The notes under the pieces are model-generated. The model had not been told where the DNA came from and did no database searches. It was given only the letters and a program-made list of their open reading frames with translations. This document shows positions 3,661 through 26,050 of a stretch of DNA of 64,000 nucleotides, one piece after another (position 1 is the stretch's first letter; every line of letters starts with the position of its first letter). The stretch lies in assembly GCA_964533615.1 (NCBI GenBank), contig CAZHMK010000008.1, positions 56,128-120,127 of the forward strand, written 5' to 3'. This DNA comes from an uncultured Eubacteriaceae bacterium (GTDB lineage: Bacteria; Bacillota; Clostridia; Eubacteriales; UBA1433). Both the position numbers and the translations under genes were made by a program.

Positions 3661-5079
3661 CTAAAATCTAAAATCTCTCTTGCCATATTCAATATCTTCA
3701 AGATGTTCTACAGCAACTTTCTTTCGTTTTTCGTTTGGTATATGTCTAACTTCCGCTTGAATCAAAGCTTCTCCGATCTCTTTCGTTTTTGGCGATGCAT
3801 AATCCTGCAGATATTCTTTTAATGTCATGAGTGCATTGGGATGACAGAAATTTTGTATTTGCCCACTTTTGCAAAAACTCATAAACCTGTCTCCTGTCCT
3901 ACCCTCTCTATAACAAGCCGTGCAAAAACTCGGAATATAGCCAAGCTCCATAAGCCATAAGATGACCTCATCCAGCGTTCTTTTATCGCTGACATCAAAT
4001 TGTTCTGATATTTCATCTTCAGCTTCAGGCTCATCGTATCCGCCCACACTTGTCCTGGAGGCTCCGCTTATTTGCGATACGCCAAGTCCGATTACCTTTT
4101 CACGGCAGGCTTTGCTCTCTCTCGTAGAAATGATCATGCCTGTATACGGCACGGCAACACGTATACACGCCACTATTTTTGCGAAAATATCATCATCGAT
4201 GCCGTTATCAAAGACATTCGGATCAATGTCATCCGCATGTTTAATCCTCGGTACACTAATAGTGTGCGGACCTACTCCATGCGCCGCTTCCAAATGCTCG
4301 GCGTGCATGAGCAACGCTGCAAATTCATAGCGATAAAGTTCGAGTCCAAATAAAACTCCCAATCCCACATCATCAATACCCCCTTTCATGGCCCGATCCA
4401 TCGCTTCTGTGTGATAAGAATAGTTATGCTTCGGTCCTGTTGGATGAAGTTTTTCGTAGCTTTCTTTGTGATAGGTTTCCTGAAAAAGAATATAGGTGCC
4501 GATACCGGCCTCCTTGAGTTTTCTGTAATCTTCTACTGTTGTGGCCGCAATATTGACATTCACGCGCCTGATGGCACCGTTTTTATGCTTAATACTGTAA
4601 ATCGTATCGATACATTCCAAGATATATTCGATAGGATTATTGACGGGGTCTTCTCCCGCTTCGATTGCAAGCCGCTTATGCCCCATATCTTGCAGCGCGG
4701 TGACTTCCCTGACAATATCCTCCTGAGAAAGCTTTTTTCGCGTGATGTGTTTGTTTGTTGAATGATACGGACAGTAAACGCATCCGTTCACACAATAATT
4801 GGATAAATACAGCGGCGCAAACATAACGATGCGGTTGCCGTAAAAATCTTTTTTGATTTGATTGGCAAGTGCATATATTTCTTGATTTTTTTCTTCGATA
4901 TCACAATCAAGCAACACAGCCGCTTCTCTGTGAGAGAGTCCTTTTCTCAGTTTTGCCTTCTCGATAATGCTGTCGATAAGCTCTGCATTGTGTTTGTTCG
5001 CCTCGGCATATGCCAGTGTGTCAAGCACCTCTTCGTGGCTGATAAATTCCTCAGCTTTCATTGATTTTGAGTTATACAT
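3661..5079 (-). CDS. hydG: [FeFe]-hydrogenase H-cluster radical SAM maturase HydG
   Basis: CVNGCVYC radical SAM motif, plus C-terminal SFCTACYR...NFCHPN (CX2CX22C) auxiliary cluster motif. Confidence 0.95.
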   Translation of the reverse strand: MYNSKSMKAEEFISHEEVLDTLAYAEANKHNAELIDSIIEKAKLRKGLSHREAAVLLDCDIEEKNQEIYALANQIKKDFYGNRIVMFAPLYLSNYCVNGCVYCPYHSTNKHITRKKLSQEDIVREVTALQDMGHKRLAIEAGEDPVNNPIEYILECIDTIYSIKHKNGAIRRVNVNIAATTVEDYRKLKEAGIGTYILFQETYHKESYEKLHPTGPKHNYSYHTEAMDRAMKGGIDDVGLGVLFGLELYRYEFAALLMHAEHLEAAHGVGPHTISVPRIKHADDIDPNVFDNGIDDDIFAKIVACIRVAVPYTGMIISTRESKACREKVIGLGVSQISGASRTSVGGYDEPEAEDEISEQFDVSDKRTLDEVILWLMELGYIPSFCTACYREGRTGDRFMSFCKSGQIQNFCHPNALMTLKEYLQDYASPKTKEIGEALIQAEVRHIPNEKRKKVAVEHLEDIEYGKRDFRF

Positions 5080-5132: not shown

Positions 5133-6191
5133 TTATTTTGATATATATTTATAGTCACCTCGGCTGACTACTAAATTATATCCAATTCGTCGCATTTGTT
5201 TTTTTAAATGGACATACCCTTCCGCCGCTTCATCCCCTGTACAAATTTTATCATTGTACAGCATATATTTCCCCCTCACATCCAGCGGTGATAAATTTGG
5301 CATCACCACATTTGCTCCCGCCAAAATGCCGTCCTGTCGCCCGTTTGAATCAATGGTGCTAAGCGCAGTCGTAGAAGGAAGCAGCACTGCAGGCAGCATC
5401 AGACGAATGATGGCAAGCAATTTTAGTGTTTGTCTGCATGAACCTGCATTTTTTTGTGCAAAAGGTGTCCGGCTATGCGGTATAAACGGGCCTATACCCA
5501 CCATATGGGGATCGAATTCCTTCATAAAATATAAATCGTTGATGATATGCTCTCTTGTCTGAAAAGGAGATCCCACCATAAACCCGCATCCCACCTGATA
5601 GCCGATCTCTTTTAAATGAAACAAGCATTCCATGCGCCGGCTCAGCAACATTGTATACGGATGCAGCTTGTGATAATGTTCAAAATTCGCAGTCTCATGA
5701 CGCAATAAATATCTGTCCGCTCCAGCATCAAAAAACATTTTATAGCTGTCATAGCTCCTCTCTCCGATAGACAGTGTAACGGCACAATCCGGATAATTTT
5801 TCTTAATGAACGAAATGATCACAACCATTCTCTCATCTGTAAAATATCCGTCCTCCCCACCCTGCAGCACAAAGGTACGAAATCCCAGTTCATAGCCGAT
5901 ACGGCAGCAATCAAGAATTTGCTTGCTGTTGAGTCTGTATCTTTGTGCATAGGTATTGCTTTTTTGAATCCCGCAGTAATAACAATCATTCCTGCAATAA
6001 TTTGTGAATTCAATAAGTCCGCGTATATAAATTTCATTGCCATATATGCTGTCTCTGACAGAGCGCGCCCGCTGAAAAAGATACTCTTCCGTCTCAGAGC
6101 ATTCGCACTCAAGCAGAGTAATCAATTCTTCTTTTGCCAGCAGTTTTTCTTGCTCTAATTTATCGATTAATTGTTTTACTTTATTTGTCAT
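5133..6191 (-). CDS. hydE: [FeFe]-hydrogenase H-cluster radical SAM maturase HydE
   Basis: RGLIEFTNYCRNDCYYCG, RYLLRHETA, GANVVMPNLSP. Start reassigned to ATG at 6191 (MTNKVK), overlapping the upstream gene's stop; the ORF-track start at 6296 lies inside TM1266. Confidence 0.92.
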   Translation of the reverse strand: MTNKVKQLIDKLEQEKLLAKEELITLLECECSETEEYLFQRARSVRDSIYGNEIYIRGLIEFTNYCRNDCYYCGIQKSNTYAQRYRLNSKQILDCCRIGYELGFRTFVLQGGEDGYFTDERMVVIISFIKKNYPDCAVTLSIGERSYDSYKMFFDAGADRYLLRHETANFEHYHKLHPYTMLLSRRMECLFHLKEIGYQVGCGFMVGSPFQTREHIINDLYFMKEFDPHMVGIGPFIPHSRTPFAQKNAGSCRQTLKLLAIIRLMLPAVLLPSTTALSTIDSNGRQDGILAGANVVMPNLSPLDVRGKYMLYNDKICTGDEAAEGYVHLKKQMRRIGYNLVVSRGDYKYISK

Positions 6192-6444
6192 GTGTTGTAT
6201 AAGTTTTAGAATATGCAGTTTTCGCGCTGATGCTCGGCAATTTACCGATTTTCCCTGATACCGCACTAATGATATCCTGCGGAGCATCAAGCACAATACT
6301 GATAATATTCACCTTTCTCCGGCGATAAGGCATGCTCATTCTGCCAATAATATATTGACTGTATTGATGCAGAATATAGTTTAACTTTTCAATTGAATTA
6401 TTGTTTTCAACAATAATTCCAATTACTGCAGCTCTTGTTTCCAT
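6181..6444 (-). CDS. TM1266 family iron-only hydrogenase system putative regulator (NikR C-terminal/ACT-like)
   Basis: 87 aa, METRAAVIGIIVE...IIGRMSMPY...IISIVLDAPQDIISAVSGKIGKLPSI; first gene of the hydEGF operon. Confidence 0.85.
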   Translation of the reverse strand: METRAAVIGIIVENNNSIEKLNYILHQYSQYIIGRMSMPYRRRKVNIISIVLDAPQDIISAVSGKIGKLPSISAKTAYSKTYTTHDK

Positions 6445-6462
6445 CTTTCAGCTTGATATCTG

Positions 6463-6603
6463 AAAATAAAAAATGCACCGTGAAAGGCGCAATCATACAT
6501 TACATTAATATATATCATTCATCGGCCTTTCACTCAGAAAATCTCTTTGTGTCAGTTATGAATATTTTTTTAACTTCACTGCAAGAAAATCTTACAGCTT
6601 AGT
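6463..6603 (-). promoter_or_regulatory. Putative attenuator/riboswitch-like leader of hyd maturation operon
   Basis: Terminator GCGCC-TTTCAC-GGTGC + ATTTTTTATTTT (6490-6463). Alternative helix GTGAAAGGC (6533-6525) / GCCTTTCAC (6488-6480). No match to a riboswitch class I recognise. Confidence 0.6.
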
Positions 6604-6609
6604 GTTAGT

Positions 6610-6638
6610 ATCATAACACAGGCGGCTAAAGAAATCAA
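6610..6638 (-). promoter_or_regulatory. Sigma-A-type promoter of hyd operon
   Basis: TTGATT (6638-6633), 17 bp, extended TGn-TATGAT (6615-6610). Confidence 0.65.
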
Positions 6639-6670
6639 TATTTATTGATAGAAATTTATCAATAAATATT
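6637..6670. promoter_or_regulatory. Perfect 14-bp inverted repeat abutting hyd promoter -35 (candidate operator)
   Basis: AATATTTATTGATA-GAAATT-TATCAATAAATATT. Confidence 0.5.
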
Positions 6671-6768
6671 TTCCTTGTTTTATCTTCTAATCTTGTCAAC
6701 TCATCTGTTTATTTGTCATGGTCTATATATTTATTACAATAATTAATTATATCTATAGGAGATATATT

Positions 6769-6865
6769 ATAAAAAAACATATTGATAACTATGATTCTTA
6801 TGCTTATCATTTTTATGACAGGATGCAACTCTCAACAAAATGAAATAAAAAAAAGCATGGAATAA
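6769..6865 (+). pseudogene. Degenerate lipoprotein gene remnant
   Basis: AGGAG RBS (6757-6761) followed by a broken start, then ILITMILMLIIFMTGCNSQQNEIKKSME-stop (hydrophobic signal + lipobox MTGC). Confidence 0.4.
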
Positions 6866-7104
6866 ATTAAATGAATCAAACATATCACATCACTATGATG
6901 ATAGGTAGTGCCATTTCATAGCAATTTATGAAAAAATAAAAAGAAATAGATTTACTTTAAATTCTTTAAAATAGTATGTTATAATAACAAAGAGAGATAT
7001 TCATTCTATTCCAAAAATTTATTTTACAGAAAACTATACTATGGATATTCTCTAAGGTTTTAAAGCCGAGAATTTAAAAATAATATGGTGATGGAGGTTT
7101 AATT

Positions 7105-7479
7105 ATGACTCAATTGAAACAAGTTTATAAGTGCCAAATTTGCGGCAATATTGTTGAAGTGCTTCATACAGGCGTTGGAGAATTGGTTTGTTGCGGACAG
7201 CCTATGAACTTACAAGTAGAAAATACTGTTGACGCTGCACTTGAAAAACATGTGCCGGTTATTGAAAAAATTGACGGCGGCGTACTCGTTAAAGTCGGAG
7301 AAATTCCACATCCAATGACAGATGCGCACTATATCGAATGGATAGAAATACATACTGCAAATAAAATTTATAGAGAATATTTAAATCCGGAAGATACGCC
7401 TGAAGCCAGATTTTATTTGGATGAAGAAGTTTTAATGGCGAGAGAATACTGTAATTTACATGGTTTGTGGAAAGCATAA
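7105..7479 (+). CDS. dfx: Desulfoferrodoxin (2Fe superoxide reductase)
   Basis: YKCQICGN...LVCCG centre I; EKHVP, HPM..HYIEWI and CNLHGLW centre II. Confidence 0.95.
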
Positions 7480-25857: not shown

Positions 25858-25896
25858 AAAAAAACCATGGCACAATTATCTGAAATTGTCCCATGG
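25858..25896 (-). terminator. Riboswitch expression-platform terminator
   Basis: Minus strand CCATGG-GACAATT...AATTGT-G-CCATGG + TTTTTTT; overlaps the 3' strand of the NiCo aptamer. Confidence 0.8.
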
Positions 25897-25965
25897 ATCT
25901 AACTCCATTGCTTTGCCTCAAAGCCCGGTCTCACGTGCAAAAGCCACATATTGCCTGCTCAATTT
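25883..25965 (-). ncRNA. NiCo (czcD) riboswitch aptamer
   Basis: Minus strand AAATTGAGCAGGC...ACCGGGC...GCAA...TGGGACAATTT matches the conserved NiCo junction sequences; P1 AAATTG/CAATTT; directly upstream of a CDF gene. Confidence 0.88.
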
Positions 25966-26050
25966 CTCTATTTATACAAAAATATTTTCTGCCTGTTTTT
26001 TTATAACTGTTACAATGTTATTATACCTGATACAATTACACAAATTATAT

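Follow-up and report, generated by a model that had tools for sequence, protein, structure and literature searches.

A dyad-symmetric RNA element in the leader of an [FeFe]-hydrogenase maturation operon, a candidate attenuator linked to TM1266-family proteins

The hyd operon and its leader

The window analysed here, a 64-kb stretch of DNA from an uncultured Eubacteriaceae bacterium, carries an operon for [FeFe]-hydrogenase maturation, in which a small gene of the TM1266 family is followed by hydE, hydG, hydF and an aspartate-ammonia-lyase-like gene (Table 1). This work concerns the leader of the operon, which spans about 160 nt and ends at the ATG of the TM1266-family gene. All features of the hyd leader are read on the minus strand of the window. 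The leader is built as a terminator/antiterminator attenuator, and the switching strand belongs to a hairpin with dyad symmetry. An initial annotation, made from the letters of the sequence, had proposed a sigma-A promoter, a leader of this length and a terminator; all three are present, the promoter with an extended -10 element.

The promoter is kept in the sister species, and its position predicts a transcription start site near A6603. Promoter-like matches in a consensus scan were not more frequent in the region than in shuffled sequence. The leader is predicted to fold with a free energy of -40.1 kcal/mol (z = -3.5 against 200 shuffles). The minimum free energy (MFE) structure has four parts. 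From 5' to 3', these are the hairpin 6598-6578, a longer one (6563-6517) with AUUCAU/AUGAAU as its closing helix, an AU-rich spacer hairpin, with sequence conservation confined to the genus, and the terminator. With a 6-bp stem (4 GC pairs) and a 6-nt loop, the latter qualifies as a Rho-independent terminator, and it is the sole terminator-like site within 5800-7300. The public sequencing runs that contain the window sequence are sludge-metagenome DNA only. On the other side of a 460-bp AT-rich spacer, which has several promoter-like sites, a gene for desulfoferrodoxin (superoxide reductase; 7105-7479, plus strand) is oriented divergently to the hyd leader.

Table 1. Features of the hyd leader and operon (window coordinates)
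Feature	Position	Strand	Details
Sigma-A-type promoter	6638-6610	-	-35 TTGATT 6638-6633, 17-nt spacer, extended -10 TGtTATGAT 6618-6610; 9 of 12 consensus matches plus TG extension
Upstream hairpin P0	6602-6574	-	Diverged dyad copy CUAA-GCUG-UAAG-auuuu-CUUG-CAGU-GAAG
Putative operator or aptamer domain	6563-6517	-	P1 helix AUUCAU 6563-6558 with AUGAAU 6522-6517, enclosing the dyad core; MFE fold
Dyad-symmetric core	6555-6527	-	Half-site 1 CUGA-CAC-AAAG 6555-6545; half-site 2 CUGA-GUG-AAAG 6537-6527
Antiterminator 5' strand	6533-6525	-	GUGAAAGGC; 3' half of the dyad motif
AU-rich spacer hairpin	6513-6493	-	Between motif and terminator; inside the antiterminator helix in the read-through state
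Intrinsic terminator	6491-6463	-	UGCGCC-UUUCAC-GGUGCA + UUUUUUAUUUU; stem 6491-6486 with 6479-6474, U-tract 6473-6463
TM1266-family gene	6444-6181	-	87 aa, first in operon, candidate trans-acting factor; PF21699 E 1e-29, 102.8 bits (cut-off 27); TIGR03959 105 bits (cut-off 60.8)
hydE	6170-5133	-	NCBIfam equivalog (TIGR03956, TIGR03955 and TIGR03918 together cover hydE, hydG and hydF)
Second dyad copy	5123-5093	-	hydE-hydG spacer (53 nt); CUAA-UGGG-GAAG-aauuuau-CUGA-CCCA-AAAG
hydG	5079-3661	-	NCBIfam equivalog
hydF	3649-2441	-	NCBIfam equivalog
Aspartate-ammonia-lyase-like gene	2440-1109	-	Subfamily NF008909

Antiterminator and terminator

The antiterminator strand GUGAAAGGC is the exact reverse complement of GCCUUUCAC (6488-6480) in the terminator, and the mutually exclusive 9-bp pairing of the initial annotation is thereby borne out. 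The two states are close in predicted energy, with -33.6 kcal/mol for the enforced antiterminator versus -34.9 kcal/mol for the terminator state, a gap of 1.3 kcal/mol. At the point where transcription has reached 6480, the antiterminator has the lowest predicted energy.

The same arrangement is found in related leaders, where a terminator follows the motif in 57 of 59 cases, at a distance of 13-146 nt. The calls were doubtful for two leaders (L089 and L096), which were dropped from the duplex test (n = 57). In these related leaders, the 3' half of the motif base-pairs with the terminator of the same leader, at its 5' arm and loop, and the variable bases after AAG covary with the terminator, as in the pairs AAAGAUGC/GCAUCUU, AAGAUACGG/CCGUGUCUU and AAAGGCACGG/CCGUGCCUUU. 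The mean duplex energy was -12.3 kcal/mol with the cognate terminator, compared to -10.5 kcal/mol with non-cognate terminators (Wilcoxon P = 3e-4) and -9.4 kcal/mol for shuffled sequences (P = 2e-8). The duplex of the window was the best of its row, with -17.7 kcal/mol versus -9.6 kcal/mol for non-cognate terminators. The initial annotation had named conservation and covariation in orthologous leaders as a check, and both motif and antiterminator are indeed kept there and covary. As the hairpin is the conserved structure and excludes the antiterminator, a stabilized hairpin should lead to termination. The anatomy of the leader thus suggests that the unbound hairpin corresponds to the ON state, and the bound hairpin to the OFF state.

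A covarying hairpin with dyad symmetry

In the core of the hairpin, the CAC and GUG segments of the two half-sites pair to form helix P2a, with tandem purine-purine mismatches on either side. The initial annotation had drawn AGA-UUU-UCU triloops. Such a UUU triloop is present in close relatives, but the loop of the second hairpin in the window is GAUUU, closed by AGA/UCU. The dyad consensus is C-Y-G-A / N3-5 / R-A-R-G on both strands, with the N segments paired to each other. Outward of the N helix, the parsed copies have two purine-purine mismatches on each side, followed by Y-R and C-G pairs. Copies were assigned to the dyad-motif family by paired half-sites, sense orientation and a location upstream of hyd, TM1266 or ATP-binding cassette (ABC) transporter genes, and both 6555-6527 and 5123-5093 belong to it by these properties.

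A MAFFT alignment of 37 short-type copies, the type found in the window, has an invariant CUGAC...G-RAAG frame around variable P2a pairs (AU 20, GC 11, UA 2 for one pair; CG 19, UA 9, UG 7, GC 2 for the other). P2a cells are paired in 85.6% of cases, versus at most 52% when the partner column is slid, and the covariation score of the alignment was reached by no shuffle. The same pairing picture was obtained for 58 distinct model-aligned matches of the covariance model R2 (see below), and across both sets 84-86% of the cells are paired. The alignment of minimal dyads (A8, also MAFFT) has gaps inside the paired segments, and was therefore left out of the pair counts in favour of a regular expression parse with a permutation control. 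The regular expression asks for two half-sites, with no demand on pairing, and retrieved 45 distinct sequences from the fetched loci. The N segments are fully complementary in 26 of them, as against a mean of 3.8 and a maximum of 9 in 1000 permutations, and 14 different helix sequences occur among these dyads.

Apart from the short motif, there is a longer one, type 1 (CUGA..GAGGG-UUCGU-CCC..GAAGGC), the tip of which is GGG-UUCGU-CCC. Type 1 is frequent in g3, the largest genus of the order. Its second half-site has CCGA facing GAGG where the short type has CUGA facing GAAG, so that a C-G pair takes the place of a U-A pair, in agreement with the dyad model.

The initial annotation had also noticed that the 5' motif is doubled, and rightly so, since the segment 6602-6574 (P0) is a diverged version of 6555-6527. 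P0 retains the proximal purine mismatches, and the distal ones are swapped for Watson-Crick pairs. With compensatory changes, P0 is seen only in close relatives (L040 and L045, by eye also L127; 3 of the 59 leaders with a strict descriptor). Judging from the leaders compared, P0 is lineage-specific, and it may serve as an auxiliary site or as a 5' stabilizer. A tandem motif was considered as a general feature of the family and rejected because of this restriction to close relatives. One leader (L149) has two full dyads in series.

Distribution across genomes

Searched as DNA, the leader has counterparts of its central 30-40 nt ahead of TM1266-hydE in two more families of the order, and each of these copies precedes a terminator. 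For a broader view, the upstream 300-350 nt of 110 TM1266 genes were read, 30 from the order and 80 from named genome records. The motif, in the form CUGA - short helix - variable hairpin - helix' - RAAG(RY), is recognizable in about 60 of these 110 regions. The set includes Lachnospiraceae, Oscillospiraceae, Eubacteriaceae, Peptococcia, Sporomusa, Acidaminococcaceae, Desulfovibrio, Prevotella and a metagenome-assembled genome of the Bacteroidaceae. The combination of motif and terminator ranges over Clostridia, Negativicutes, Desulfovibrio and Bacteroidota. It is found ahead of TM1266, hydE, hydG, hydF/aspartase-like genes and two kinds of ABC importer operon, and the motif is always in sense orientation relative to the downstream gene.

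A first covariance model (R1, 4 sequences) gave 6 strong matches in 102 genomes, 78 of them with TM1266. It was too narrow, and was therefore replaced by R2 (37 sequences). Counts with R2 are lower bounds, since the model detects the short motif type only and misses type 1. In the source genome (2.35 Mb), R2 has one significant match, the hyd leader itself (40.6 bits, E 4e-6). In a class sample of 401 genomes, 47 have an R2 match, exactly one per genome. Among the best 30 of these matches, 21 are directly upstream of TM1266 and 1 is between TM1266 and hydE; matches are also found upstream of hydE (5), hydG (2) and a FecCD-type ABC permease gene (2). Additional copies of the motif head an aspartase-like + hydF operon, a hydE-hydG operon and an SsuA-like ABC importer operon with no TM1266 gene.

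Some of the loci deserve separate mention. In L166 (G453:C14) and L167 (G457:C78), dyad and terminator precede a FecCD-type permease gene, which is followed by a gene for an ABC ATPase with a C-terminal TM1266 domain. L166 continues with a HydE-like radical SAM gene and a NifH-like gene, inside which the locus ends, and L167 has NifH-like and NifD-like genes. These genes may form a cluster for cofactor or metal handling that has yet to be described and is controlled in the same way. In L181, L182 and L184 (from G060, G085 and G007, with a single TM1266 gene each), an SsuA-like ABC operon has a dyad (CAGA/UUUG helix) and a terminator, and lacks a TM1266 gene of its own, which implies control in trans or by a ligand. 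In genus g13 (L174, L175, L178, L179), TM1266 directly follows another gene and has no leader, and dyad and terminator are found before hydE-hydG on another contig (L183). In this genus, the candidate regulator and its target are unlinked.

Further copies in the source genome

A scan of the whole source genome for paired half-sites found 4 places, compared to about 1 in shuffled sequence. Three of them have pairing N segments, namely the hyd leader, a site ahead of hydG and the leader of a TM1266 paralog. In the fourth, the N segments do not pair, and it looks like chance.

The copy ahead of hydG lies in the hydE-hydG spacer, which has no terminator at this site. It is directly followed by the Shine-Dalgarno sequence of hydG (AAAGGA, 5092-5087; ATG at 5079). 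A dyad upstream of hydG is found in at least 9 loci, including one of a Desulfovibrio, with covarying helices (CGGG/CCCG, CAGG/CCUG, UGGG/CCCA). In predicted folds of the site, the hairpin forms and the Shine-Dalgarno sequence remains single-stranded, and the flanks are devoid of a conserved closing helix (P1). An unpaired Shine-Dalgarno sequence without a conserved flanking helix suits a steric block by a protein, and such a block would explain the copy more easily than a ligand-induced fold.

The third copy (CUAA-UGAA-AAAG-cacag-CUGA-UUCA-AAAG) is located on another contig (C14; G000 C14:18981-21730), in the leader of a second TM1266-family gene. Its second half-site is again an antiterminator strand, UCAAAAGGG, facing CCCUUUUUGA of the downstream terminator. 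The gene encodes a protein of 88 aa (TIGR03959, 90.8 bits) with GRLGIPF instead of GRMGIPY, and heads an operon for an SsuA/NMT1-like ABC importer (binding protein, permease and ATPase), just after metG. Four other genomes have this leader as well, with UGGA/UUCA and UAGA/UCUA as variants of the helix. In another genus, all 10 of 10 TM1266 paralogs have a dyad about 120 nt upstream.

TM1266 proteins and their co-occurrence with the motif

The AlphaFold2 model of the TM1266-family protein (predicted local distance difference test score 92) has a beta-alpha-beta-beta-alpha-beta fold and no DNA-binding domain. The nearest solved structures are 2NZC (TM1266 itself, four chains), the tetrameric NikR C-terminal domain (NikR-C) and ACT domains. 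The invariant residues of the family include R4, R35, K65, K75, H26, Y28 and Y40. A NikR-like square-planar metal site is unlikely, as the alignment has no invariant cysteine and H26 as the sole invariant histidine. To our knowledge, the annotation of TM1266-like proteins has not gone beyond that of putative regulators since the structure 2NZC appeared in 2006. The protein of the window departs from the near-invariant GRMGIPY of the family around residues 35-37 (6334-6342), where it reads GRMSMPY. The sister species conforms to the family, and alignment A3 puts the conservation of G37 at 90% or more.

Of 399 genomes of the class sample, 244 encode TM1266 and 257 encode HydF. The motif was found in 44 of the 213 HydF-positive genomes that also have TM1266, and in none of the 44 that lack it (hypergeometric probability about 1e-4, from a hand comparison of three tables that ignores phylogeny). 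The one R2-positive genome that lacks TM1266 has a weak match (27 bits), and HydF is absent from it as well. Where the motif is placed ahead of hydE, hydG or an ABC operon (in G282, downstream of TM1266), 10 of 10 genomes still encode TM1266. By gene content, the motif is tied to the TM1266 family more tightly than to any other gene.

Comparison with known RNA families

The element had been annotated as an unclassified switch, and it has remained one. The leader was compared to the 4227 models of Rfam 15, which include T-box, SAM, TPP, cobalamin, NiCo, Moco, PyrR and ykkC, and gave noise only (at most 21 bits) even at E<=10. Sixteen orthologous loci had no match at the gathering threshold, and 15 loci compared at E<=5 gave only two unrelated noise matches. 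The sole Rfam match of the window at the gathering threshold is a NiCo riboswitch at 25884-25972 on the minus strand (42.6 bits, gathering score 37).

Some known elements were considered individually and rejected. A PyrR binding site (RF00515) gave no cmscan match, and the first gene of the operon encodes TM1266 rather than PyrR. ANTAR targets consist of two tandem hairpins with hexanucleotide loops (A in position 1, G in position 4), the second of which overlaps the terminator. In the hyd leader, the loops are UUU and GAUUU, and the conserved hairpin is clear of the terminator stem. A kink-turn joins two helices through a bulge of three nucleotides and tandem sheared G-A pairs. It does not fit the predicted pairing, in which tandem purine mismatches form symmetric 2x2 loops with no bulge.

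Discussion

The hyd leader is best described as a transcription attenuator that acts on a dyad-symmetric RNA operator, with TM1266 as the most likely effector in the role of a ligand-gated RNA-binding attenuation protein, a reading that we hold with moderate confidence. The nascent RNA, starting at about 6603, would fold into the hairpin 6563-6517, which presents two identical CUGA-N3-AAAG half-sites on a short helix flanked by tandem purine mismatches. If nothing holds the hairpin, its 3' half GUGAAAGGC would re-pair with GCCUUUCAC once the latter is transcribed, no terminator would form, and TM1266, hydE, hydG, hydF and the lyase gene would be read through, making ON the default state. A factor that clamps the hairpin would allow the terminator (6491-6474) to form, and transcription would stop at the U-tract. 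The factor is most likely the first product of the operon, TM1266, an oligomeric protein of ACT/NikR-C-like fold that is probably gated by a small ligand. TM1266 may also bind the second operator ahead of the hydG ribosome-binding site and block translation, and bind related operators ahead of ABC-importer operons. In this scheme, we infer that binding stabilizes the hairpin and that TM1266 is the binder, and the same caution applies to the nature of the ligand that would be sensed.

The case for TM1266 leans on its co-occurrence with the motif across genomes and on the copy at the hydG site. It also helps that the solved folds nearest to TM1266 form symmetric oligomers, which suits a dyad RNA. 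Several observations weigh against it. The co-occurrence statistic takes no account of phylogeny, and R2 sees the short type of the motif only. The ACT/NikR-C fold is known for small-molecule and metal binding, not for RNA binding. Two genomes encode an ABC ATPase that carries the TM1266 domain at its C-terminus, the classic place of a solute-sensing trans-inhibition domain. The helix between the mismatch motifs has 3, 4 or 5 bp depending on the lineage, which is awkward for a rigid dimer, and several operons headed by the motif have no TM1266 gene in cis.

The hairpin could instead be the aptamer of a new small-molecule OFF riboswitch for a metabolite or metal linked to the H-cluster, with TM1266 as a merely co-regulated ligand-binding protein. 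We consider this unlikely on balance, yet it is the strongest of the alternatives. Covarying helices around a conserved internal loop, with a 3' strand common to the antiterminator, are the architecture of an OFF riboswitch. The ATPase-TM1266 fusions fit this explanation at least as well as the TM1266 model, as the domain there resembles a solute sensor more than an RNA binder. The variable spacing of the half-sites points the same way, and so does the presence of the motif ahead of TM1266-less operons (hydE, hydG, aspartase-like + hydF, SsuA-like ABC and FecCD-like ABC). However, the number of conserved nucleotides is only about 10, and their arrangement in a dyad is unusual for an aptamer. 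Moreover, the motif was not found in any of the 44 HydF-positive genomes that lack TM1266, and TM1266 paralog genes each come with a motif copy of their own. Finally, the hydG-proximal copy has no expression platform, its Shine-Dalgarno sequence being unpaired and a conserved P1 missing.

A conserved dyad and a putative translational site suggest a macromolecular binder, and this binder might be another protein or a small RNA, with TM1266 as a passenger of the regulon. Such a factor appears improbable, as no other gene accompanies the motif as consistently as TM1266, and the neighbourhoods that were read offer no further candidate.

Two other explanations can be discounted almost entirely. Ribosome-mediated attenuation by the upstream open reading frames MNDIY (6522-6505) or the one from 6518, which the initial annotation had offered as a weaker alternative, draws on the AUG codons between motif and terminator, but these have no proper Shine-Dalgarno spacing, a 2-nt indel in the sister species shifts the frame and alters the peptide, and the AUG is absent from this position in other genera whose leaders share motif and terminator. 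A DNA operator for a transcription factor, or a chance likeness, might be suspected from the two direct CTGA-N3-AAAG repeats 18 bp apart downstream of the promoter, but the N segments, being complementary and covarying, are constrained as RNA, covariation also links the 3' half to the terminator arm, the sense orientation is constant, a copy is found inside the operon at the hydG ribosome-binding site, and 3 of the 4 genomic occurrences (about 1 expected) are at TM1266-linked places.

Extending the TM1266 model beyond the window, TM1266-like proteins might constitute a new family of RNA-binding attenuation proteins that share the ACT/NikR-C fold and are gated by ligands. A CYGA-N3-5-RARG hairpin would be clamped by their symmetric oligomers, with termination or a blocked ribosome-binding site as the outcome. 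Their regulon would comprise H-cluster maturation (hydE, hydG, hydF and the ammonia-lyase gene), two ABC importers and a nitrogenase-like cluster. This wider proposal could in our view turn out right or wrong about equally well.

A literature search found no paper that ties TM1266 or hydE/hydG to an RNA element, and none on how synthesis of the HydE, HydG and HydF maturases is controlled. The hyd leader element is probably the first known control switch for the assembly pathway of the [FeFe]-hydrogenase active site. It is a widely conserved candidate control point for the hyd maturases, its proposed mechanism is simple and testable, and there is an obvious candidate for the effector. Should TM1266 bind the hairpin, a long-standing putative regulator would gain a function, and the ACT/NikR-C fold would join the RNA-binding attenuators. 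If a metabolite binds it, a new class of riboswitches would report on H-cluster chemistry. In both cases, the transporters and the nitrogenase-like cluster of the regulon become possible contributors to the assembly of the hydrogenase cofactor, and removal or rewiring of the switch could raise hydrogenase maturation in hydrogen-producing strains.

The mechanism, as proposed here, resembles attenuation by PyrR, TRAP or HutP, or a small OFF riboswitch. PyrR of the Bacillus pyr operon (RF00515) is similar in overall organization. In both cases, a small regulatory protein is encoded first in the operon that it controls or would control, several sites are present per operon, and the protein with its co-repressor would stabilize a leader hairpin that excludes the antiterminator, so that the terminator forms. 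However, PyrR has a phosphoribosyltransferase fold and TM1266 an ACT/NikR-C fold, the hyd RNA is dyad-symmetric with tandem purine mismatches, and one of the hyd sites is at a ribosome-binding site and not at a terminator. TRAP (trp) and HutP (hut) of Bacillus are likewise ligand-gated oligomers that recognize repeated short RNA elements overlapping an antiterminator, and HutP is also the product of the first gene of its own operon. These proteins read single-stranded GAG or UAG triplets, whereas the hyd element has two half-sites of 11-12 nt in a hairpin with a covarying stem. In addition, HutP antiterminates, and the hyd element is predicted to terminate when bound. Both TRAP and HutP bind RNA, which is a proposal in the case of TM1266.

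The ribonucleic antiterminator (RAT) hairpins of LicT and SacY are comparable in the mode of recognition, as a protein dimer binds to a pseudo-symmetric hairpin with two similar internal loops that overlaps a terminator. In contrast to the hyd hairpin, which competes with the antiterminator, binding to RAT prevents termination. The hyd locus has no CAT/PRD protein, and the loop sequences differ. The small OFF riboswitches (THF-II/folE and NAD+-I, by their general architectures) share with the hyd leader a short hairpin with a conserved internal loop, a 3' strand in common with the antiterminator, and a Rho-independent terminator as expression platform. The hyd element differs from them in that its conserved nucleotides lie in a dyad, that one copy is platform-less, and that it co-occurs with one protein family.

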